This document shows, in pieces, positions 5,242 through 45,983 of a stretch of 64,000 bases of DNA; position 1 is the first letter of the stretch; every line of letters begins with the position of its first letter. The translations under genes and the position numbers were made by a program. The stretch is from a virus. Lineage: Duplodnaviria; Caudoviricetes. The stretch lies in the IMG/VR virus record IMGVR_UViG_3300037504_000149. One strand, written 5' to 3'. Under the pieces are notes generated by a model that saw only the letters and a list, made by a program, of their open reading frames with translations, made no database searches and was not told where the DNA came from.

Positions 5242-5769
5242 ATGAGTAATATAAATATAGATATCGTTACGGATACTGATAATAATTTTAACTTAGAAGT
5301 AGAAGAGGGGGATAAGTATGCAGACCATCCCGCCTATCATGAAGATAACTCTCCAACAAACTGCACTATAAATTTAAGGGGACCAAAAACTGATGTTAAT
5401 GGTTCTCTTAAATGGGTATGTTTTGATATGTACGAGTTTAAAATATTAAACGATTTTTTAATATATACAATAAACACCTACGGCAGTACAAAACACTTTA
5501 GAGATAAGACAACTCGAATAACTTACAAGTTATCACCTCCTGTACCTATATATGATTACTGCGTAAGTTATGAATATGATATAGCTTTAAAAATGTACTA
5601 CATTACTGACGGGGATAGGATGGTAGGTTTTGATTATATATCTGGTACCGCTATACGTCGTGGTATTAAAACCATTCTAGATACGTTTTCTTGGGTAACC
5701 AGAAACAACCAAGCACCAGCGTGTGAACAACCCTCTGACACAACATACCTTGATTGTGAAAATTTATAA
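5242..5769 (+). CDS. hypothetical protein
   Basis: 175 aa ORF with GGAG RBS. Confidence 0.65.
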   Translation: MSNINIDIVTDTDNNFNLEVEEGDKYADHPAYHEDNSPTNCTINLRGPKTDVNGSLKWVCFDMYEFKILNDFLIYTINTYGSTKHFRDKTTRITYKLSPPVPIYDYCVSYEYDIALKMYYITDGDRMVGFDYISGTAIRRGIKTILDTFSWVTRNNQAPACEQPSDTTYLDCENL

Positions 5770-5808
5770 CCCTCACTGTTAAATTACAAACGACCTTAAG
5801 GAGACGTT

Positions 5809-6483
5809 ATGAGTACATACAACATTTCTGAAAAAATATCTGATTTAGTTAGGAATCATGGAATAGATCAATGCAAAATTATGTTTTATTCTACTGATAC
5901 GAGTGGTATGAGAATGTGTATTAAAGGATACGTAGAGGACAAACATATTTCCCGATCGATTGATCTAGATACTGACAATAGTTTTGATGATCAGGTAGAA
6001 GCACTGTGTGAAAGTATACTGGATGAAGCCAAAGAAATACGTAACATAAATAGCGGCTATTATCATTGCCCACCACAGCAGACAAAAGAAAACAAACCTA
6101 CCTCTAAGTGGTATACATTAGCTACAAACTCTACCCCAACTATATATTATAAAGATAAAACTATAACATTACCCGACGTAGGAAGTCCGTGGAGATATAG
6201 TAAGGGTGGAGGGGGTTGTGTAATTCATATTTGGTATAGTATACAGTGTGTAAATACACCTACAACCGTATATTGTGAAACATTAGATTGTGTTTTAGCT
6301 ACCGCTGTTTATTCCAACCAGAAGTATTACCTTAACTATTCCGAAGAAGATGATTGCTTCGAAATGTATATATACGATCTAGATACTATAAGTATTCACC
6401 AGCAGTCTACTCAATATAAAGATGTGGATATCATAAACATTAACGCCGAACAAATTGAATATGATAATATACTTAAGGAGTAA
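5809..6483 (+). CDS. hypothetical protein
   Basis: 224 aa ORF with AAGGAG RBS. Confidence 0.7.
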   Translation: MSTYNISEKISDLVRNHGIDQCKIMFYSTDTSGMRMCIKGYVEDKHISRSIDLDTDNSFDDQVEALCESILDEAKEIRNINSGYYHCPPQQTKENKPTSKWYTLATNSTPTIYYKDKTITLPDVGSPWRYSKGGGGCVIHIWYSIQCVNTPTTVYCETLDCVLATAVYSNQKYYLNYSEEDDCFEMYIYDLDTISIHQQSTQYKDVDIININAEQIEYDNILKE

Positions 6484-11884: not shown

Positions 11885-12157
11885 GGAAGAAGTGAAGAGT
11901 AGGAGGGGGAGGCACGATAGTTATAAGAGATACAAGGGAGGGGAGGGAGTAGTTGTAGGAGAGACAGGAGGGACACAGGGGAGAGATGAGGTAGGGGAGG
12001 ATAGAGTTAGGAGGGAGTAGTTGTAGGAGGGGGAAAGCTATGATGATGGAGGGGAGGGAAGTTAGAGGGGACATAGAAGGAGTATAGCAGGAGTATAGAG
12101 GGGGGGGGATTGTACTGCCTTCTGCGTCCCCCCGAATATCTACCCCCCTCTACCTCT

Positions 12158-12336
12158 ATTTTAACATATTTTTTATTAAATGTCAAGTGTCATCTTGCTA
12201 TATTATTAAAATCGAATATAAAATAAAATATACATTTTTTTTATTATAACATATTATTTATTAAATGTCAAGTAAAATCTTTTATTTTTTTATTTTTATA
12301 ATCTTTTATTATAACATATTATTTATTAAATGTCAA
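12158..12336 (-). promoter_or_regulatory. three tandem leftward consensus sigma70 promoters
   Basis: Minus strand TTGACA-N17-TAAAAT (12186-12158) and TTGACA-N17-TATAAT (12271-12243, 12336-12308), each with a TGn extended -10. Confidence 0.85.
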
Positions 12337-12359: not shown

Positions 12360-14000
12360 TTTTTATTATTCATACTTCCCTATTTATAATAATAATATCC
12401 TTATTTATAAACTCCGTAACTCCCCTATTATCAATAAGTTATAACTGGCCCCTATCGCCACTCAAGGCATACCATACCACCCCTAGAACCGATCGGCGCT
12501 CTATGGCCCGTTATATCGATCCTGAGCGAAAATGCGTAAATACGCATATGGAGCCAATTGATATACTGTCTCAGTGTGCGCAACGTCACACCTTCCAATA
12601 AATATCGTGTATCAATAAGCCTACTTTGTGATAAAAGCCCTTGACAACACTAATCTTTTATGTTAGAATCACGTTATGAGGGGCAGTGTAGGGGTTTATA
12701 CATATACTACACTCCCCACTATTCATATACTCAATACTACAATTACAATAATGGGGAGGTGTATTCATATACTAACTAATCCTTCCCCTATATACAACAT
12801 TGAATAATAGTAATCTTAATTAGCATCGTCGCATATGTATCTTTATTCATATGCTCCACCAGACATTACCTGCTACCAGTCTATTTATAATATGAATATC
12901 AAAACTTATAATTAAGTATGTTAACACTATACTTAATTATACCATATTCGCCTATTCTAAAATGGATTTTACAGAATAATCTAATATGAATATAAGAAGA
13001 ACAGGGGGAGGGACCAGATAATTACAATATGAATATAAACAATTCCCCACTTAGGGGTCTCTATACAGGAAAAATCCCCACTGCTATATGATTATTCCTA
13101 TGTAGAGAGTCGCTCTTTCCCCACTTATTCATACTACCAGCATTCATAACATGAATAAATGCAGGTATAGCAAGGGTCTAGGGGGTGGGGAATAAATAAA
13201 AGTGATATAAACCTTGTACCAATAGGGTTTTATAGTGATATAAACCCTTGCCGCACTAAGGTTTATAGTGATATAAACCTTGACACAAAAGAAGTTTTAT
13301 GTTAGAATCACGTTATGAGGGGGAGTGTAGGGGGAGTATATATAACTATATACGTATAATCGAATATCCAGAATAAAAAAAAACCCCCGGCGATAACACC
13401 GGGGGAAGGGGGCGGCTATGCGTCGTCAAGAGCACCGCGAGCAGACCAGACGGCCTGGGCGGCCCGAACTATGGCACTGCGGGCGGCGGCGGCAGGGTCG
13501 CTGGTGAGGTGTTTGAGGGCGTCAAGGGTGTTGTATGCATCGCAAATGTCGTTGATAGCGGAAGTGAGGGCGGCGGCGGCGCGGGCAGTGTTTCTCATGA
13601 TCTTCTCCCTTCTGCCCCGGTGGGGCGGTTGTTGATTGTTGTGAGACAAGTATACCATATAAACTAGAGGATTGTCAAGGGTAAAATTAAATAAAATAGT
13701 ACTTGACTTTAAGGGAGTTTTATGTTATCATCATGTTATGAGGGGGAGTGTAGGGGGAAGGGAGCGGGAGACGTTGAATAGTTACAATATGAATGGGGGA
13801 GTAGAGGGGAGCGGGAGATGTTGAGAGGATGTTGAATAGTTAGAATATGAATAGGGAGGAAGAAGGGGGGGTGATTATTCATATTAAGATCATTCTGAGA
13901 TTTTGCAGGGTATTTATATTATTGATATACCGTACAATCCCCCAATATACGCGCACAAAATTTTGCAACCCCCAATTTTAATTATTCATAATAATTATAT
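12360..14000. other. non-coding hub with IHF site and iteron-like repeats (candidate origin or terminus region)
   Basis: IHF consensus TATCAATAAGTTA at 12429-12441; about 12 copies of TATTCATA/TATGAAT; AGTGATATAAACC x3 at 13201-13280. Confidence 0.45.
13416..13598 (-). CDS. small Ala-rich helical protein in an inverted expression cassette
   Basis: Minus strand TTGACA (13678-13673), GCCCC hairpin, AGGGAG RBS, ATG at 13598; terminator at about 13375-13405. Confidence 0.7.
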   Translation of the reverse strand: MRNTARAAAALTSAINDICDAYNTLDALKHLTSDPAAAARSAIVRAAQAVWSARGALDDA

Positions 14001-14209
14001 TCTACCCCCCCCCTGCTCCTTCCCCTGCTCCCGTATTCCTCGCGCTATTATAATTCTACATACCTACCATAAAAGAGTTTAACATAAAACTTCCCTGAAG
14101 TCAATACCTATTTTATTCCATTTTATCCTTGACAAGTTTTCAATCCATATGGTATACTGCCTTCAGAAGATAAAAACGCCCCGGAGGGGGCATAACCTGG
14201 AAGGGAACG

Positions 14210-14410
14210 ATGGATAAGGAAAACTTTGATGTATTTTATGCGGCGGCGCAAGCTGTAGCAACACTTAAATCAGCTCGTGCCATTGCCTGTGTCGTTGACG
14301 CTGCTGTCCGTACAAAAGAAACACGGACAGCGCTGAATAAAATCTGTGATGCGCTGAAAACGATGGAATCGGTGCGAAACAGTAACCTAGAAACAATATA
14401 TTCTCGCTAA
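14210..14410 (+). CDS. cassette cargo, small helical protein
   Basis: Own promoter (TTGACA 14129), RBS and terminator. Confidence 0.75.
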   Translation: MDKENFDVFYAAAQAVATLKSARAIACVVDAAVRTKETRTALNKICDALKTMESVRNSNLETIYSR

Positions 14411-14422
14411 ACATACTACACC

Positions 14423-14450
14423 GCCCCGCTGGAATCCAGCGGGGCTTTTC
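14423..14450 (+). terminator. Rho-independent terminator (representative copy of the module)
   Basis: 10 bp stem GCCCCGCTGG/CCAGCGGGGC followed by a T-tract. Confidence 0.9.
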
Positions 14451-14655
14451 TTTATCCTGGATATTCGATTATTCTTATATCCTATTTTATATATTCCCCT
14501 TAGTCTTCCCCTTCAAACATAATGCTAACATAAAACTTACCTGAAGTCAATACCTATTTTATTCAATTTTATCCTTGACAATCTAGGAACTAGTATGATA
14601 TAATAGCTTTACAAGATTAGAAACGCCCGCAAGGCGGGCATAACAGGGAGGATAT

Positions 14656-14838
14656 ATGGAACGGACAACCTATATTGTTATCGGCGGCCAGCAGGTCGGC
14701 ATCACTGGCAACCCCAACGATGACCCGCTGTCCGCCCCGGCGGCCAAGGCGGCGCTGAAGGACTATCGCGCCCGCACCGGCCGGACCGCTGTCCCTATCC
14801 GGCTGGCCAATGGGACGGTATTCTCACGGGGATTCTAG
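14656..14838 (+). CDS. cassette cargo, hypothetical 60 aa
   Basis: Own promoter (14575), GGGAGG RBS and terminator. Confidence 0.75.
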   Translation: MERTTYIVIGGQQVGITGNPNDDPLSAPAAKAALKDYRARTGRTAVPIRLANGTVFSRGF

Positions 14839-15076
14839 GTTATTACGCCCCGCTGGAATCCAGCGGGGCTTTTCTATACCTTGTATATTCGATTATTCTT
14901 ATATCCTAATATATTCCCCTTAGTCTCCCCCTTCAAACATAATGCTAACATAAAACTTCCCTGAAGTCAAGACCTATTTTATTCCATTTTATACTTGACA
15001 ATCTAGGAATCCATATGGTATACTACTTTCAGAAGATGAAAACGCCCCGGAGGGGCAAAACTAGGGAGGGGAAAGA

Positions 15077-15328
15077 ATGGAGTATTTATTGCGTCTGACC
15101 CGCGCCCGATATAATGATATACCGATAGATAACATCGGGCAAGCTACGCGAATAAAGGTCAAGAGTATACAAGCCGCTAAGATAGCGGCAACAAGATGGG
15201 CGGAGCAAGTGGCAACACCAAACAAGCCCTATTGTGTCGTTATCTACACAATCGAGGGTACACCTATAATAAGAAAACACAGCTTTACTAAGAAATGGGC
15301 GAAAGCGGGAGAATTCTACTGTACCTAG
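15077..15328 (+). CDS. cassette cargo, basic hypothetical protein
   Basis: Own promoter (14995), RBS and terminator. Confidence 0.75.
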   Translation: MEYLLRLTRARYNDIPIDNIGQATRIKVKSIQAAKIAATRWAEQVATPNKPYCVVIYTIEGTPIIRKHSFTKKWAKAGEFYCT

Positions 15329-15563
15329 CATTTACCCCCGCTGGATTCCAGCGGGGCTTTTCTTTATCCTGGATATTCGATTATTCTTATATCCTAATAT
15401 ATTCCCCTTACTCTCCCCTTCAAACATAATGCTAACATAAAACTTCCCTGAAGTCAAGACCTATTTTATTCCATTTTATACTTGACACTCTAGGAACTAG
15501 TATGGTATACTACCTTCAGAAGATGAAAAGCCCGCATAGCGGGCATAACAGGAAGGGAAACGG

Positions 15564-15896
15564 ATGATTTACGAAGTTATTACTCGCGATGAACTCTATC
15601 ACCGTCTGAAGGGGTATAACGACGTATTCTCGTATGAGGGGGCTCGGATAATATACGATTATATTACCGAACTCGGCGATACGGAGCTAGACGTTCCCGA
15701 CATTCACGGCGGGTTTACGGAGTATTCCGATGCTGAGGAAGCGGCAGAGGACATTCTCCCCCCTGATGAGGTCGAGGAAATGCGGAAAGAATTCGCGGAA
15801 TTCCCCGGCCTTGATGATGAATGCTGGAAGGCGCTGGAGCGGGCCGGTGAAACAGTGCTGGGCTCGGCGTCCGGGCCTGTCATTATCGCGGAATAG
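15564..15896 (+). CDS. cassette cargo, acidic phage hypothetical protein
   Basis: FSYEG..I.DY..E....ELDV motif familiar from phage proteins; own promoter (15482). Confidence 0.75.
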   Translation: MIYEVITRDELYHRLKGYNDVFSYEGARIIYDYITELGDTELDVPDIHGGFTEYSDAEEAAEDILPPDEVEEMRKEFAEFPGLDDECWKALERAGETVLGSASGPVIIAE

Positions 15897-16130
15897 TTTT
15901 ATCGCCCCGCTGGTATTCCAGCGGGGCTTTTCTATACCTTGTATATTCGATTATTCTTATATATATTCCCCTTACACTTCCCCTTCAAACATAATGCTAA
16001 CATAAAAGTTCCCTGAAGTCAATACCTATTTTATTTAATTTTACACTTGACAATCATTTAATCCGTATGATATAATACCTTTACAAGATTGAAACGCCCC
16101 TACAGGGGCATAACAGGAAAGGGAAGGAAT

Positions 16131-16568
16131 ATGATTTACACCAATCTTGATGAAGCACGCGCCGCGAAGGCGGCGAGCGTAGCAAAGGCGCGAGAGCTGG
16201 AGTCCCGCGCTATCGAAGGTGAGGGGCCTACTTCCACCGAAGCCGAAGAAGTCAGGCATGAACGGTGGATCAAGGAAAACACCCTGGTTGTTACCAGGCA
16301 CGCAGGCCTGGTCGACTACATCAAAGAAGAGTTCATTTATCCCGCGTACCTGGCATCAGACGTGGTATTCTCTCACGTTGAGCAAAAGGACGTGGAGGGG
16401 AAGCACGTGGTTGGCATTTTGCCGCTCCACCTGGCCGCATTGGCAGATAAGGTGACGGTCATCCCCCTGAACCTGACCCCGGCGGATCGAGGTCAGGAAC
16501 TTTCCGCCGAACGGGTGCGGGAAGTGGCCGGTGACCCGGTAACCTACCGGGTCGAGCAGGTGAATTAG
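16131..16568 (+). CDS. Csx16-like protein (putative cyclic oligoadenylate ring nuclease)
   Basis: TLVVTRHAG...HV...VVGILPLHLAA...LNLTPADRGQELSAE..R...YRVE matches the Csx16 (VVA1548) pattern. Confidence 0.72.
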   Translation: MIYTNLDEARAAKAASVAKARELESRAIEGEGPTSTEAEEVRHERWIKENTLVVTRHAGLVDYIKEEFIYPAYLASDVVFSHVEQKDVEGKHVVGILPLHLAALADKVTVIPLNLTPADRGQELSAERVREVAGDPVTYRVEQVN

Positions 16569-16903
16569 CTCTCACTGCCCCGCTGGATTCCAGCGGGGCT
16601 TTTCTATACCTTGTATATTCGATTATTCTTATATCCTATTATATATATATATTACCCTAGTCTCCCCCTTCAAACATAATGCTAACATAAAACTTCCCTG
16701 AAGTCAAGAACTATTTTAATGTATCTAAAACAAGGCAGCACAAGGGTATATTTTAGTCGCCCGTAGAAGTGATATAACGGGCCGTAGATGGCCGTAAAGG
16801 GTGGCAGAGTGGTATAGTATACTTATCTATTGAACGGCCTTAAAATCGCCCTACGGGCATTATATGGAATATCAGGAAAGTTTAATATAGATAAAGTTTT
16901 CTC

Positions 16904-17140
16904 TTGACAGGGAGCAAAGGTTATGATATACTTCCCCCGTAAGATTGAGAAATAGATACCTGAAACGCCCCCCAGAGGGGGCATAAAGGAAAGGGGAATA
17001 AATGAAGGGTTGACAGCGATGGGGAAGTATGATATACTTCCCCCGTAAGATTGAAGATGTAGTAAACGCCCCTACGGGGCACAAAGGAAAGGGGCTAAAA
17101 TTAGGGGTTGACAAGGGTGGGGAAGTATGATATAATCCCC
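16904..17140 (+). promoter_or_regulatory. three stacked promoter/hairpin/RBS heads, the first two without cargo
   Basis: TTGACA at 16904, 17009 and 17108; the first head's RBS leads only to ATG AAG GGT TGA. Confidence 0.8.
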
Positions 17141-17569
17141 TTGATGAGCGTTACCTATAACACAGTATCATTTATTCACTAGAGTTAACAAGGGAGGGAG
17201 GCGCAGGATGAAACACTATCAGCGTAACATCCTGCTGGAACCCGGTTAAATCATCGGGGCGGAAAGTAAGTCGGCCCCGCCCCGGCTTTCCCGGGCCTTA
17301 ACATGGGATACACCGTAGACCTATTGTGATCAACGGTAAATCCGTTGTGACGCTCCCCCGGTCCCTAAACTATGGGGACCGGGGATTTTAGTATAGTTAG
17401 TTTATATTATAAGACTGCCGGACTGCCCACAAAAGAGTTTAACATAAAAGTTACCTGAAGTCAATACCTATTTTATTTAATTTTACGCTTGACATTCTAG
17501 GAACTAGTATGATATAATAGCTTTACAAGATTAAAACGCCCCGGAACGGGGCATAACAGGGAGGGAACG

Positions 17570-17782
17570 GTGTTTCACTTAAAATTCTACGACGGGACGA
17601 CCGGGAGTGCCGGTTGTTACGGGAGTTTTGATACGCTCGCCGACGCTATGGCTGAGTGTGATACCGTCCCCGGTTGCTCCGGGGAGTCAGGGTATGAGTC
17701 ATCCTCGTTGTATATCGAGGATGACACAGGAGAAGTTGTCGCATCCCTAGGCGCATATTGCGCCGGTTGGGTTGTGGGCTAG
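17570..17782 (+). CDS. cassette cargo, acidic hypothetical protein
   Basis: Promoter 17489, AGGAGG RBS, GTG start and terminator. Confidence 0.7.
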   Translation: MFHLKFYDGTTGSAGCYGSFDTLADAMAECDTVPGCSGESGYESSSLYIEDDTGEVVASLGAYCAGWVVG

Positions 17783-17967
17783 ATTTACGGCCCCGCTGAT
17801 ATTCTCAGCGGGGCTTTTCTTTTACCTTGTATATTCGATTATTCTTATATATATCCCCTTACTCTCCCCCTTCAAACATAATGATAACATAAAACTTTCC
17901 TGAAGTCAACCCCTAAATTTCCCTATTAAATCCTTGACATCTATCTGCTGTTTTGATACAATACTCG

Positions 17968-18140
17968 TCGAGGTGGCAGCCGCAGTAGGCGCAGGGAAGT
18001 TGAGACCCCTAGACGTAGGACTCCGGTCCCTGTATCCCCGCCGATCACGGGGTGCATGCGGGTGTCGGGATTGTCCGGGCAATCCCCAATCCCGCCCACC
18101 TTACATGAAACGGCCCCCGCTGGATTCCAGCGGGGCTTTT
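17968..18140 (+). ncRNA. candidate small structured RNA carried as cassette cargo
   Basis: TTGACA-N17-TACAAT at 17934, no RBS or credible ORF, GC stems (GCAGGGA/TCCCTGT, CCCCG/CGGGG, CGGGATTG/CAATCCCG), then the module terminator. Confidence 0.5.
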
Positions 18141-18348
18141 CTTTTACCTTGTATATTCGATTATTCTTATATCCTAATATATTCCCCTTAGTCTCCCCCT
18201 TCAAACATAATGCTAACATAAAAGTTACCTGAAGTCAATACCTATTTTATTCAATTTTATACTTGACAAGCTATAAACTAGTATGATATACTATCCCCAC
18301 AAGATTAGAAACGCCCCCGGAGGGGGCATAACAAAGGAAGGGGAAGAA

Positions 18349-18861
18349 ATGGGCTGGGATGGTAGGTATATGGATAACACTGTGAAAGCCCGTCAACGAG
18401 TGATGATGGAGACTGTCGGACTGATAGACTTGTCGGTCCGGGGCAATGAAGGGTACGCTGCAGTGAAACATCCCGATATGGAGGCCGTGTTTTGTATGAT
18501 CTTCATTTTCCGGTATTCTGAAGGGGAATTGTGTACAAAGACCTGTACGGAGCTTGACGGCCCGTTTTGTTGGAATTGCCCGCAACGTATTATGAAACAG
18601 CTCACTGCGCCGCTGAACGAGCGGGCGGCGGATTGGCGCGATGCTTGTCGGCTCGCTGCGAAGTTGCGCAAAGCGCGTTATGTTTATCTGGAGCGGTCGC
18701 CGCATGGCACTGACATACGCTTAGTGGAAAAGGTGGCGAATGCTCGGAGTGTTTACCGTGAGATGTATACCGGTGAACTATGGCGGCTGCGCGTTAACAC
18801 TATGATGCACTACGGCGCTCGTCCAGTGGATAAGGACGAAGCCGAGGCGATGTTACGTTAG
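18349..18861 (+). CDS. DUF6927-like mobile-element protein
   Basis: E.DGPFCWNCPQRIMKQLT...AADWRDAC motif. Confidence 0.6.
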   Translation: MGWDGRYMDNTVKARQRVMMETVGLIDLSVRGNEGYAAVKHPDMEAVFCMIFIFRYSEGELCTKTCTELDGPFCWNCPQRIMKQLTAPLNERAADWRDACRLAAKLRKARYVYLERSPHGTDIRLVEKVANARSVYREMYTGELWRLRVNTMMHYGARPVDKDEAEAMLR

Positions 18862-19088
18862 ATTTACCGCCCCGCTGGAATCCAGCGGGGCTTTTCTTTA
18901 TCCTTTATATTCAATTATTCTTATATATATATTCCCCTTAGTCTTCCCCTTCAAACATAATGCTAACATAAAACTTCCCTGAAGTCAATACCTATTTTAT
19001 CCAATTTTACACTTGACAAGCTATAAACTAGTATGATATAATAGCTTTACAAGATTGATAGCAGTTAACATTAAAAGGGGAGGGCTCC

Positions 19089-29003: not shown

Positions 29004-29060
29004 CAAAACTGATATTATATGCTATACTGTATATAGAAACTCAAACACAAAGGAGAAGTT

Positions 29061-31544: not shown

Positions 31545-31929
31545 GGGGCTGATAAGGGTTCGACGTGCGAGTAAAAGTGAGGTAGCATCCCGTGGTTGGT
31601 CTCTAGGCCACGTAAAAAAGAGACCAAACAACAACAGCCGAAAATGCTGTTCCCTTGGCTGCTTAAAAAGCCGCTCCTCTATGGAGCTAGGCTCGTAGCC
31701 CGCCCCCGGAAAGGTTTCTCTGCACCTGACTGGATAAGGCGTCAAAAAGCAGGGGTCCGACTTGGAGTTACCTAATCGCTCCTAAAAGGACTACAGAGTA
31801 ATTAGGTAGGGTGCGCGAGACTGTGCCGTATCAGCCGGACCGCACCGACACGACATGATACGGCTATGGATGTAGATGCCGAAGCGGCACTTGACACGGA
31901 CGCGGGTTCGATTCCCGCCAGCTCCACCA
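31545..31929 (+). ncRNA. ssrA: tmRNA; tag (A)AENAVPLAA*
   Basis: 5' GGGGCTG pairs with 3' CAGCTCC-ACCA including a G3:U pair; T-arm GGGTTCGATTCCC; tag ORF 31637-31666; promoter TTGACA-N17-TATCAT at 31501. Confidence 0.95.
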
Positions 31930-39504: not shown

Positions 39505-40125
39505 ATGAAATGTCATCACTTACAATTATATACGGTATATCGTAAATACTACCCCCAACAACATTTTGGTAAAGCAGCACTAGTAAAACTACTCTATTTT
39601 GCTCAAGAAGTTGAAGGCGCTAAGTTAGGTTATAGTTTTGATCTAGAAACATTTGGACCATTCACACAAACAATACTTGACGAATTAGATGATTTGGAGT
39701 GTAAAGGCACTGCTATAGTTAAATATGTTAATGATCATTATGTCATTGACTATTACGATAAGCCAGATTTTATACTACCTGAAATTGAACAAGCTGTTAA
39801 AAAGTTTGGTTATCTGTGTGGTTTTGACATGGAAACATTAGCTACTATACACTTCTTGAGAGATACAAAACCTACCAGAGAAAGTATGTATATTGCAGTG
39901 CATGGTATTAAACCCAGAGTGAATCGTACAACCTTTGATAAGATGTATCGTTTAGCTGTACAGTTTGGTTTAATTCCTGATAGTACATCTCCCGTTTCCA
40001 TTGATTATAAAAAGCGCAAAGAAGCTAAACTATTAGAAGACGATCTAGATTGGCGTACTGAAGAAGAGAAAATACAGGATTATGAAGAGGCTTATATACA
40101 AGTACATAACCGAAAGAGGATATGA
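39505..40125 (+). CDS. DarG C-terminal/SocA(Panacea)-like antitoxin domain protein
   Basis: GKAALVKLLYFAQE...GYSF.L..FGPF...DELDDL...METLATIHF. Confidence 0.55.
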   Translation: MKCHHLQLYTVYRKYYPQQHFGKAALVKLLYFAQEVEGAKLGYSFDLETFGPFTQTILDELDDLECKGTAIVKYVNDHYVIDYYDKPDFILPEIEQAVKKFGYLCGFDMETLATIHFLRDTKPTRESMYIAVHGIKPRVNRTTFDKMYRLAVQFGLIPDSTSPVSIDYKKRKEAKLLEDDLDWRTEEEKIQDYEEAYIQVHNRKRI

Positions 40126-40391
40126 TGCCCCACGTATACATAGCTCCACACAAACGTGCTAATCGTAAAGAAGTAAAGGAAACTACTCCCCACGGTTTAA
40201 CGTGGCAAGTTGAAGGGCCTTATAAAGATTATGATAGTGCTGCGGAGAAGAAGAAGGAACTGAAAAATAAAGGGTTACAAGTTAAAGTCCATCACCTCAA
40301 ACGTGGTTATGTAGTTAAGTCACGTGATCCGGAAAAGGTGAAGAAGCACAAACAGAAACAGAAGAAAGACGCTAAAAAGAAAACTAAATAG
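40122..40391 (+). CDS. basic small protein
   Basis: WQVEGPYKDYDSA; Lys-rich. Confidence 0.6.
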   Translation: MMPHVYIAPHKRANRKEVKETTPHGLTWQVEGPYKDYDSAAEKKKELKNKGLQVKVHHLKRGYVVKSRDPEKVKKHKQKQKKDAKKKTK

Positions 40392-43296: not shown

Positions 43297-43331
43297 AACT
43301 TGAAATTGAAGCTTCGATGTGTTATACTGTT

Positions 43332-43637: not shown

Positions 43638-44876
43638 ATGGATCTAGTTGAAAAAATTAGGCTGTTCCCTACCGAGGAACAAAACAAGCAACTCCGAGAG
43701 TTGGCTGCGTTCTGTCGTGACGCGGCAAACTACATCTCGGAGTTTATCTATACACATCGTTTGCGCTCCAAGGGTGTAGGGACGCTCTACAAACCGGATT
43801 GGGAAACGCGAGCTGCAAAAGATGATCCAGACGCCGTTTCACTTTATAAGGTATTGTGCAGTGCTTTCGATTTTAGTGGCAAGAAGTCTCTAGCCACCGC
43901 GATTATTCAAAGGGTAAAATCATCCTATAAGTCCACCAACGCACGAAACATCACACAAGGGGATGCCTTTTATCGGGCAGGTAAGGCGAAGTATCGTCAA
44001 TTGAAGAAAGATGGAATAAAAGGGGAAACACTTAAGGCTGCTGCTAAGCTTACTCAAGAAGAAAAGAACGAGATAGCTGAACGGTATGGCATGACAAAGC
44101 CGCTCAGCTTCAATCCCTTTATTCCTACCCTAAAACAGAATACTAAATGGAAGGAAAACACAGTCAGTTTCTTCGGTATCTCAAGTATACCTTTTGCGTC
44201 TCGACTGGAAAACATAGAGTCTCGTGACGCGATTGTTAAGCTCAACAAAAACAACAAGTGGCTGCTACACCTTCCCGTAGAGACCTCCGAAGAGGAAGTT
44301 TACGAACCTGCTGGTTGGTTGGGAGTAGATGTCGGACTGGCAAACCTGGCTGTCACCTCTGAGGGCACGGTCTATTATGGCGGTGAGAACCGTCGCCGTG
44401 GTGAAACACGGTTCAAGCAACGTCAGCGGATGCAGAAGAAGGGTACTAAATCCGCGAAGCGTAGACTGAAAGCTCTTTCCGAGAAAGAAACAAGGTGGCG
44501 AAAAAATCTCTGCCACGAGATCAGCACCGCTATCGTCCGACGTGCGAAAGAGCTTCGCTATGGTGTAGCGGTAGAAACGCTGAAAAACATTCGGCGAAAC
44601 GTGAGACAATCGAGGAAGCTGAATCGTCAGCTTCACGGTAGTTTTCCTTTTGGTATGCTTCTTTCCATGCTAGAATATAAAGCAGAGAAAGAGGGTGTAC
44701 CATTCCAGAAAGTGGATCCTAAAAATACCTCCAGGACGTGTCCAAAGTGTGAATATGTAGCAGAGAAAAACAGAATTAGCCGTACACACTTTAAATGTGT
44801 GGAATGCGGCTACAAAAACTACGCAGACCATGTGGCGGCAACTAACATTTCTCGGATAGCAGAAACCGGGATATAA
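43638..44876 (+). CDS. CRISPR-associated TnpB/Cas12f-like RNA-guided nuclease
   Basis: RuvC-I GVDVG, RuvC-II VAVETL, zinc finger CPKC...CVEC, RuvC-III ADHVAATNI; adjacent to the array; no tnpA. Confidence 0.9.
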   Translation: MDLVEKIRLFPTEEQNKQLRELAAFCRDAANYISEFIYTHRLRSKGVGTLYKPDWETRAAKDDPDAVSLYKVLCSAFDFSGKKSLATAIIQRVKSSYKSTNARNITQGDAFYRAGKAKYRQLKKDGIKGETLKAAAKLTQEEKNEIAERYGMTKPLSFNPFIPTLKQNTKWKENTVSFFGISSIPFASRLENIESRDAIVKLNKNNKWLLHLPVETSEEEVYEPAGWLGVDVGLANLAVTSEGTVYYGGENRRRGETRFKQRQRMQKKGTKSAKRRLKALSEKETRWRKNLCHEISTAIVRRAKELRYGVAVETLKNIRRNVRQSRKLNRQLHGSFPFGMLLSMLEYKAEKEGVPFQKVDPKNTSRTCPKCEYVAEKNRISRTHFKCVECGYKNYADHVAATNISRIAETGI

Positions 44877-45009
44877 TGTTGGTGGCGTCGGGGCGTAGGG
44901 AGACGCCCATACAGCGGAGACGAGATCCGAACTGATGGCGTAGCACAGACGATAGGATCACTTGAGTCTACTGCTGAGCACAGCACTACTTTTCGAGAGC
45001 CTTCTGGTG

Positions 45010-45166
45010 ACATAGAAGGCCGGGAGGTTCTCGAAAAGGTATATTGTTGATAGTAGGATAGTTACGGCAAGGGTGCGTTTTCTAGTACATTTCTCGGGGC
45101 CTGAAAGTGGGGGTTCTCGAAAAGGTGAAAATAAACCTAGTAATATCAACAAGTTAAAAGACTGGG
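45010..45166 (+). promoter_or_regulatory. CRISPR leader
   Basis: GGTTCTCGAAAAGGT twice (45026, 45112); IHF consensus TATCAACAAGTTA at 45144-45156. Confidence 0.75.
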
Positions 45167-45983
45167 GTTTTAACGACTTCTGCGGTGTGCTTGTGCATCT
45201 CCCTGGTAGCTTCTTGGGGTTTTTGTATCGTTTCGGAAGTTTTAACGACTTCTGCGGTGTGCTTGTGCATCTCCCTACAAAATACATCATCGGTTGGCCT
45301 AAGTTGTCCTTCTGTTTTAACGACTTCTGCGGTGTGCTTGTGCATCTCCCTATATAGAAATCATGAACTCAGGAGGTTCACTATGAGTTTTAACGACTTC
45401 TGCGGTGTGCTTGTGCATCTCCCATACTGCATCGACCAGACACGCCTACCCTATCATTAGTTTTAACGACTTCTGCGGTGTGCTTGTGCATCTCCCTATT
45501 GGTAGTGAGACAGTGGACAAGGCCATAAATGGCCGTTTTAACGACTTCTGCGGTGTGCTTGTGCATCTCCCATACCATTGAGCCTGATCTGGTAGTGCTA
45601 TGCCTCATTGTTTTAACGACTTCTGCGGTGTGCTTGTGCATCTCCCAGCATAGTAAACCTCCTGAGTTCATGATTTCTATATAGTTTTAACGACTTCTGC
45701 GGTGTGTTCGTGCATCTCCCCTGCTGCTACATCGGTCCTAACACAGATCAAAGGGAGTTTTAACGACTTCTGCGGTGTGTTCGTGCATCTCCCCTGCTGC
45801 TACATCGGTCCTAACACAGATCAAAGGGAGTTTTAACGACTTCTGCGGTGTGTTCGTGCATCTTCCTATAGTAGAGAGTAGAAAGTTACATACATGGTCT
45901 CGGGTTTTAACGACTTCTGTGGTGTGTTTGTGCATCTCCCACCCTTCGCCATACACCTTCCGCAAAGTGTTTGTGTATCTCCC
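45167..45983 (+). CRISPR. CRISPR array: 11 repeats of 37 bp, 10 spacers (35-38 bp), degenerate terminal repeat
   Basis: GTTTTAACGACTTCTGCGGTGTGCTTGTGCATCTCCC at 45167, 45239, 45314, 45387, 45460, 45535, 45610, 45684, 45757, 45830, 45904; remnant ends at 45983. Confidence 0.98.

Follow-up and report, generated by a model that had tools for sequence, protein, structure and literature searches.

The window analysed here, a stretch of 64,000 nucleotides (nt) of a virus of the class Caudoviricetes (IMG/VR record IMGVR_UViG_3300037504_000149), carries a gene for a TnpB-family nuclease of 412 amino acids (aa), here called P0001, followed by a folded non-coding RNA region and an adjoining CRISPR array (short palindromic repeats, clustered and regularly interspaced). 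The locus is real and well preserved and, judged from its sequence, probably functional. We consider it likely to be a phage-encoded, TnpB-derived, type V-like CRISPR interference module that depends on a tracrRNA (trans-activating CRISPR RNA), at the grade of the transposon-CRISPR intermediates (TranC), the type V-U branches and Cas12f. The main parts of the locus are the following.

43638-44876, + strand: TnpB-family RNA-guided nuclease P0001, 412 aa (open reading frame (ORF) and Pfam/NCBIfam profiles)
44877-45166, + strand: structured non-coding RNA, tracrRNA-like (an omegaRNA-like scaffold), 290 nt, conserved in the related loci L001 and L002
45167-45940, + strand: CRISPR array of eleven 37-nt repeats and ten spacers of 35-38 nt (repeat analysis)
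45967-45983, + strand: terminal degenerate half-repeat GTGTTTGTGTATCTCCC, 17 nt, 3' half only (repeat comparison)

The coordinates and counts that a sequence-only reading of this DNA had given for the 412-aa ORF (43638-44876), the 290-nt gap and the 11 repeats were right. Its description of a minimal, adaptation-less phage unit, type V-like and built on a TnpB-sized nuclease, was upheld as well, and the conservation of the unit together with the turnover of its spacers argues for function.

P0001 matched the Pfam families OrfB_IS605 and Cas12f1-like_TNB and, at full length (residues 6-405), the NCBIfam model NF040570 guided_TnpB with 180.4 bits against a cut-off of 100. The score with the NCBIfam Cas12f2 model NF049972 (121.6 bits, cut-off 450) was below the cut-off and came from the C-terminal half only. 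Profiles of the PADLOC/CCTyper type for Cas12f and V-U3 (Cas12u3) matched the full-length protein with E-values of 1e-37 to 1e-41; these profiles are without a curated cut-off and also cover TnpB-like proteins. In an alignment of 30 sequences (P0001, four close homologues and 25 TnpBs), the RuvC triad D231/E313/D397 and the zinc ligands C368/C371/C387/C390 were invariant, and the intact D-E-D triad and zinc finger read earlier from the sequence were thereby borne out. The same applies to the basic helical insert of ~45 aa that had been noticed in the N-terminal half. Relative to the nearest TnpBs it covers roughly residues 102-146, is lysine-rich and was modelled as three helices, with values of the predicted local distance difference test (pLDDT) mostly of 80-91 in its 10-residue blocks (mean of the whole AlphaFold model, 81). 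A second insert of ~17-23 aa at residues 44-66 is strongly conserved inside the clade of P0001 and its close homologues and was modelled with low confidence; both inserts fall in the REC region. The clade proteins stop directly after RuvC-III, and the C-terminal tail of other TnpBs is missing. Template modelling (TM) scores of the P0001 model were ~0.6 against AsCas12f and OsCas12f and 0.52-0.61 against the ISFba1 and ISDra2 TnpBs, and because these values are similar the fold alone does not tell Cas12f from TnpB. By sequence, the E-values were 1e-44 to 1e-53 for ordinary TnpBs, 1e-17 to 1e-21 for solved Cas12f proteins, 1e-9 to 1e-12 for the ISDra2 TnpB and ~1e-6 for LaTranC.

The repeat of the window is GTTTTAACGACTTCTGCGGTGTGCTTGTGCATCTCCC, 37 nt long and non-palindromic. 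No differences exist among repeats 1-7, whereas each of repeats 8-11 has 2-3 substitutions; the array thus has its conserved end towards the nuclease gene, and the repeats decay distally. The terminal half-repeat begins after 26 further bases past the array and lies 28 nt ahead of the ATG (46012) of a DHH phosphoesterase gene. A conserved internal hairpin is absent from the repeat: the one predicted for the repeat of L001 is not kept in the window, which is why a tracr-free handle of the Cas12a kind was rejected. Spacer 9 is identical with spacer 8, the two belonging to an exact 73-nt repeat-spacer duplication (45684-45756 and 45757-45829), which means that duplication of repeat-spacer units happens in this array. 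Spacers 3 (45351-45386) and 7 (45647-45683) are reverse complements over 35 nt with 1 mismatch, have one exact boundary in common and cover a GGAGG-N7-ATG sequence, that is, a ribosome site and an ATG. Uptake of one segment in both orientations would be unusual for acquisition directed by a protospacer-adjacent motif (PAM). Spacer 3 starts with 10 nt (TATATAGAAA) that also stand right after a strong promoter of the phage's own, TTGACA-N17-TATACT-G, at 29030 (region 29009-29039). These features point weakly to a related phage as the target. When the spacers were compared with the window and with all loci collected, neither self-targeting nor cross-targeting appeared.

The unit of gene, scaffold and repeat was compared in three loci: the window, L001 (nuclease 65% identical) and L002 (82%). 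L001 is a 24.5-kb NCBI contig that is syntenic with the window on both flanks, the shared order being a metallophosphatase and the genes following it, the nuclease, the DHH phosphoesterase and the genes following it, and a large minus-strand protein. Its array comprises nine regular repeats of 37 nt, GTTTCAACAACTTACGCATGACGTGAGTGCATCTCCC, and a degenerate tail; the repeat is related to that of the window and the eight spacers are unrelated to the window spacers. The repeats of L001, too, decay away from the gene, and this direction of decay in both arrays is the one expected if spacers are added at the gene-proximal end. L002 (2.2 kb) retains gene, scaffold and repeat 1 but has a different upstream gene. 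All three loci have the same 11 bases, GTGCATCTCCC, at the 3' end of the repeat, whereas the middle of the repeat diverges. From these sequences, we would argue that the conserved gene-RNA-array unit, the spacer turnover and the polar decay of the repeats together have the look of a working CRISPR locus.

Two side observations concern the repeats of the related loci. At the distal end of the L001 array (12127-12336), older units keep the 3' end of the repeat (GCGCATCTCCC / GTGCATCTCCC), and two of them carry a different 5' half (GTCTAAGRRATACTG...), a sign that the repeat's two halves may evolve separately. In L002, 22 nt separate a solitary degenerate repeat (524-559) from the nuclease ATG downstream of it; of the last 17 nt of this copy, which end with GTGCATCTCCC, 16 agree with the repeat. 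The copy directly follows an unrelated, DNA methylase-like gene with a DPPY motif, and homology to the window begins just 13 nt ahead of the ATG. Here a repeat may have been the site at which the cassette of gene, scaffold and array moved or recombined.

No transposase, Cas1, Cas2 or Cas4 domain was detected by Pfam in any of the 20 ORFs scanned at 31.8-52.8 kb of the window, mostly ORFs of at least 120 aa, and the absence of tnpA, cas1, cas2 and cas4 reported earlier thus stands for the ~10 kb around the gene. Transposase and Cas adaptation domains were also absent from the Pfam list of L001. With no transposase domain in the ORFs scanned within ~10 kb and the same syntenic position in L001, P0001 does not look like a transposon-borne TnpB.

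The non-coding region runs for exactly 290 nt from the stop codon to repeat 1 and contains the following elements.

44891-44908, + strand: hairpin H1 with loop UAGGGAGA, invariant (GGGCG-UAGGGAGA-CGCCC), just past the stop codon
~44912-44976, + strand: multi-stem region of the scaffold fold
44989-45038, + strand: long hairpin of the scaffold fold
45023-45040 and 45109-45126, + strand: internal 18-nt duplication GGAGGTTCTCGAAAAGGT / GGGGTTCTCGAAAAGGT, 86 nt apart
45044-45052, + strand: candidate anti-repeat UUGUUGAUA (pairing check)
45144-45152, + strand: pseudo-repeat 5' half UAUCAACAA, degenerate, 14 nt upstream of repeat 1

RNAalifold folded the scaffolds of the three loci (window, L001, L002) into 75 pairs, 12 of them with compensatory changes. 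The GGGAGA of the H1 loop is complementary to the last six bases of the repeat, UCUCCC, at 6/6 positions in 3/3 loci. The anti-repeat UUGUUGAUA is complementary to the 5' part of the repeat, UUUUAACGA, at eight of nine positions in the window and L001 and at all nine in L002, with one one-sided change. To our knowledge, a guide-adjacent pseudoknot is common to all TnpB and Cas12 guide RNAs. In omegaRNAs and Cas12f single-guide RNAs, this pseudoknot, called repeat:anti-repeat 1, arises from pairing between a 5'-proximal segment and the bases that adjoin the guide (PMC10097598), and a repeat:anti-repeat 2 helix joins the tracrRNA-like part and the part resembling a CRISPR RNA (crRNA) (Nakagawa et al., PMC10097598). 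Non-palindromic repeats, as described by the same authors, go with tracrRNA-using Cas12 systems derived from a split omegaRNA (PMC10097598). The anatomy of the scaffold, as far as it can be predicted, fits such a split omegaRNA consisting of a tracrRNA plus crRNA. The scaffold matched no Rfam family, and a second copy of it was not found within the window. As to the 18-nt duplication, the first copy forms the 3' arm of the long hairpin, and the second could pair alternatively with the same 5' arm.

The scaffold also bears on a different arrangement, in which the nuclease acts as a TnpB, the scaffold, repeat 1 and spacer 1 form one omegaRNA, and the other units are non-functional duplications of the omegaRNA 3' end. 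The scaffold runs directly into repeat 1, so that a natural single-guide transcript is possible; the pseudo-repeat upstream of repeat 1 and the exact copy of the spacer 8/9 unit show that duplication occurs, and TranC systems have been described as standing between the omegaRNA and crRNA modes (PMC13565253). Plain duplication, however, would not yield ten uniform spacers of 35-38 nt that are mutually unrelated save for the duplicate and the reverse-complement pair, nor the eight further unrelated spacers of L001, and the seven units with identical repeats suggest selection. We regard this arrangement as unlikely.

Several observations weigh against an active interference module at this locus. 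The anti-repeat UUGUUGAUA can also pair in cis with the pseudo-repeat UAUCAACAA; GGGAGA-like sites compete, and L001 has a perfect 10-nt complement elsewhere, in the long hairpin; and the candidate pairings rest on invariant or near-invariant bases in three sequences, so that covariation cannot confirm them. Protospacers were absent when the whole window array was compared with GenBank phages and PLSDB plasmids, matches being at chance level, and the L001 array likewise gave chance-level matches only against GenBank phages. Exact spacer cores were not found in IMG/VR or in the GTDB species genomes. Because no protospacers were found, the searches yielded neither a PAM nor a target, nor any direct sign of interference. 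Moreover, the rest of the ~230-kb genome might encode another effector.

This last point leads to the possibility that the array serves such an effector, or is hitch-hiking host-type CRISPR DNA, and that P0001 is a neighbouring domesticated TnpB with another role, for example in homing, maintenance of the phage locus or RNA-guided repression. Of the contig, ~166 kb lie outside the examined window; the repeat is similar in its first 11 bases and in its 37-nt length to arrays common in filamentous cyanobacteria, and non-nuclease roles have arisen repeatedly by exaptation among relatives of TnpB (PMC10691335). We nevertheless find this possibility quite improbable, as the link of gene, scaffold and repeat is kept in three loci, even in L002 with its changed upstream neighbour. 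In addition, GTGCATCTCCC is invariant and complementary to scaffold motifs, while the middle of the repeat diverges, and the intact catalytic triad argues against a pure repressor.

Failure to find targets, degenerate distal repeats and a duplicated spacer might also be expected of a decaying, non-functional remnant of a TnpB-CRISPR unit. Yet the ORF is intact, the catalytic residues and zinc ligands are kept in five homologues with 65-90% identity, seven identical repeats are present and the scaffold has been conserved through compensatory changes. A remnant is therefore very improbable.

For the tracrRNA-dependent interference module, which remains our preferred reading, we infer RNA processing, pairings, DNA cleavage, targets and spacer source as follows. 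The locus would be transcribed rightward as one unit, and the transcript would be cut into a scaffold RNA of ~250-290 nt, starting from the stop codon, and crRNAs, in each of which the repeat would supply the 5' handle and the spacer the 3' guide. The UCUCCC of the repeat would pair with the GGGAGA of the scaffold to give the guide-adjacent pseudoknot, and the start of the repeat, UUUUAACGA, would pair with the anti-repeat UUGUUGAUA to give the second repeat:anti-repeat helix. The 412-aa nuclease would then bind this split omegaRNA and find spacer-matching DNA beside a putative 5' PAM, and the target DNA would be cut by the single RuvC site. New spacers would be added by the Cas1-Cas2 of the host, since adaptation genes are missing from the locus. 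The phage may use the module against competing phages or other mobile elements, which are the targets of phage-borne arrays of this type in published cases (Cas12r, CauTranC9).

The sequence-only reading had proposed a recent and possibly undescribed transition from TnpB to Cas12. A word-indexed search of 5.8 billion clusters retrieved four close relatives of P0001 with 90, 82, 81 and 65% identity and 414-416 aa, the five clade proteins being 412, 414, 416, 414 and 414 aa long. When 1.84 billion 50%-identity representatives were searched exhaustively with phmmer, the whole clade corresponded to one of them, and the next matches beyond it were ~35-45% identical and matched the RuvC half only. 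The family is very rare, with five sequences in a single 50%-identity cluster. Searches for related loci turned up only ~30%-identical TnpBs, and the best full-length tblastn match among GenBank phages had 25% identity. The five members formed a fully supported clade in a FastTree phylogeny of 97 sequences, in which the path to the nearest outsider was ~2.5 substitutions per site, a join flagged for the risk of long-branch attraction; identity to the aligned TnpBs was 31-36%. The nearest relatives outside the clade are all ordinary TnpBs of 350-400 aa. In the contigs of six of the nearest of these (L012 and L014-L018), merely 26-235 nt separate the nuclease gene from the next called gene, and so no array fits there. 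The omegaRNA termini that were read in four of these six TnpBs were all of the '...GTAGTTGAC' type (or '...GATGAC') and unlike the scaffold of the window. Because of the long branch and because the nearest TnpBs have unlike omegaRNA ends and lack arrays, the clade is, on these sequences, an old and isolated lineage, and the claim of a recent transition had to be given up.

Nor does the word undescribed sit well with the literature. The half-way stage between transposon and CRISPR has already been described as TranC and type V-U, phages included. TranC systems are transposon-CRISPR intermediates for which splitting of the omegaRNA has been proposed as the key step (Jin et al., Cell 2025, doi 10.1016/j.cell.2025.09.004, as cited in PMC13565253), and V-U6 to V-U45 are 40 TnpB-derived, array-linked branches, mostly without other cas genes (Altae-Tran et al. 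2023, PMC10691335). In TnpB-derived type V branches the array is almost always downstream of the gene (PMC10691335). As in TranC, the locus of the window has a TnpB-sized nuclease placed among TnpBs and outside the named Cas12 subtypes, a confirmed downstream array and no adaptation genes; the TranC guide (omegaRNA or reRNA) is functionally split into tracrRNA and crRNA, with use of both forms, an arrangement with which the predicted anatomy in the window is consistent. TranC clade 9 has a mean length of 414 aa, 38-bp repeats, a Caudoviricetes genome and no C-terminal domain (CTD), together with a measured PAM, demonstrated activity and phage-matching spacers (10.64898/2026.03.27.714800). By description, it fits in every property compared (412-416 aa against a mean of 414, a repeat of 37 nt against 38 bp, a phage genome and no CTD), and the claim of novelty is doubtful. 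On the other hand, CauTranC9 is said to be without expanded REC/WED domains, whereas P0001 has two inserts in the REC region relative to the nearest TnpBs, and the reported array has 5 repeats against 11 in the window. LaTranC (9jfo), the one solved TranC, is unlike P0001, with an E-value of 2e-6 over the C-terminal part only and TM scores of 0.34-0.47. From a comparison by description only, the chances that the clade of the window is the same as TranC clade 9 are about evenly balanced.

A bolder proposal is that the five-member clade represents an independent capture of an array by a TnpB, apart from all published TranC and V-U branches, with a chimeric repeat. On this proposal, the nuclease would require GTGCATCTCCC, the invariant 3' end, as the strand that once formed the omegaRNA pseudoknot, and the exchangeable 5' half would have been copied from host-type repeats, so that host Cas1-Cas2 loads the spacers. 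Two hints point this way: the older L001 repeats with the same 3' end and another 5' half, and the 5' end GTTTCAACAAC of the 37-nt unit, which matches the start of common Nostocales array repeats. Taken with all its parts, the proposal is possible but doubtful.

Beside this, we observed that GTDB arrays whose repeats start with GTTTYAACRAC at CRISPR spacing belong mostly to filamentous cyanobacteria (Nostoc, Calothrix, Scytonema, Anabaena). These arrays usually have the 37-nt repeat GTTTCAACAACCATCCCGGCTAGGGGTGGGTTGAAAG, with which the phage repeat shares the first 11 nt and the unit length only. In 120 genome loci with look-alike repeat starts (L019-L138), the array-bearing ones among which were mostly cyanobacterial, no spacer matched the phage. 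A degenerate pattern of the phage repeat had zero matches in IMG/VR, GTDB genomes and JGI metagenomes, and its sequence gave chance matches only in the literature.

Cas12f (type V-F) provides the best structural and PDB sequence matches of P0001 (AsCas12f, 422 aa; OsCas12f, 433 aa). The two agree in size, in the layout of RuvC and zinc finger, in non-palindromic repeats of ~37 nt and in the lack of cas1, cas2 and cas4. Cas12f systems also have a tracrRNA between gene and array, where the window has its conserved, folded 290-nt RNA with candidate pairings (three sequences). A hallmark of Cas12f is the asymmetric homodimer that it forms on one guide RNA. P0001 is just ~17-22% identical to the solved Cas12f proteins, and ordinary TnpBs are far closer. 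With the IS200/IS605 TnpBs (ISDra2, ISFba1) P0001 shares the NCBIfam family, size, fold, catalytic residues and a guide RNA immediately 3' of the gene. It differs from them in being without tnpA, in its single copy in the window and its fixed syntenic place in two diverged phages, in having an array instead of a single guide, in a scaffold unlike their '...GTAGTTGAC' ends and in the missing C-terminal tail. Cas12r of Thermus Lalka phages (564 aa, 29-bp repeat, no tracrRNA) and the 'hacker' Cas12p (500-700 aa, thioredoxin needed) are much larger than P0001. They resemble the P0001 locus in being phage-borne, in lacking adaptation genes and in having a downstream array with spacers presumed to come from host machinery; unlike them, the P0001 locus has another repeat length and a conserved scaffold RNA. 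Structurally, Cas12p is a weak match to P0001 (TM 0.42-0.45). In L001, a thioredoxin gene (5623-5949) lies ~4 kb upstream of the nuclease gene, and phage Cas12p needs host thioredoxin. The idea of a Cas12p-like use of thioredoxin was dropped, as the window ORF 40122-40391 is without a thioredoxin domain and the P0001 insert is basic, not hydrophobic.

With 412 aa and a natural 11-repeat array, P0001 is among the smallest CRISPR-associated nucleases and for that reason a candidate miniature editor. No new category is opened with it, since publications already exist on CRISPR nucleases of TnpB size, some of them phage-borne and with a measured PAM. The two diverged arrays are useful for the question of how a transposon guide RNA turned into a tracrRNA and crRNA, and the locus for asking how phages supply arrays without adaptation genes of their own.

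The contig that carries the nuclease is 229,864 bp long. Almost all genes of the window are small and lie on one strand; together with the promoter run, the RNA genes and the enzyme genes given below, this lends it the look of a phage. With tblastn, two phage proteins gave no close cultured relative. Other features of the window are listed below; further genes code for an ArdC-like anti-restriction protein, a DNA methyltransferase and a pyrimidine-dimer glycosylase.

673-746: tRNA-Trp
31545-31929: tmRNA with tag ENAVPLAA
37352-38140: Thg1-like tRNA-His guanylyltransferase
43300-43328, + strand: candidate promoter of the locus, TTGAAA, 17 nt, TATACT, with upstream TG (consensus scan, 10/12 matches)
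46012 (ATG): DHH phosphoesterase, the next gene after the array (PHROG match)

The candidate promoter is the best site of the region, by pattern match only, and would leave an untranslated leader of ~310 nt up to the ATG; the leader upstream of the nuclease is not conserved in L001 or L002. Some ten strong promoters stand in tandem at 13646-19045 (5.5 kb), with the patterns TTGACA-N17-TATAMT or TTGACA-N14-TATGRTATAMT (extended -10). The strong-promoter pattern occurs 19 times in the window, where chance would give 3.2 occurrences, and the run at 13646-19045 looks like a phage early region.

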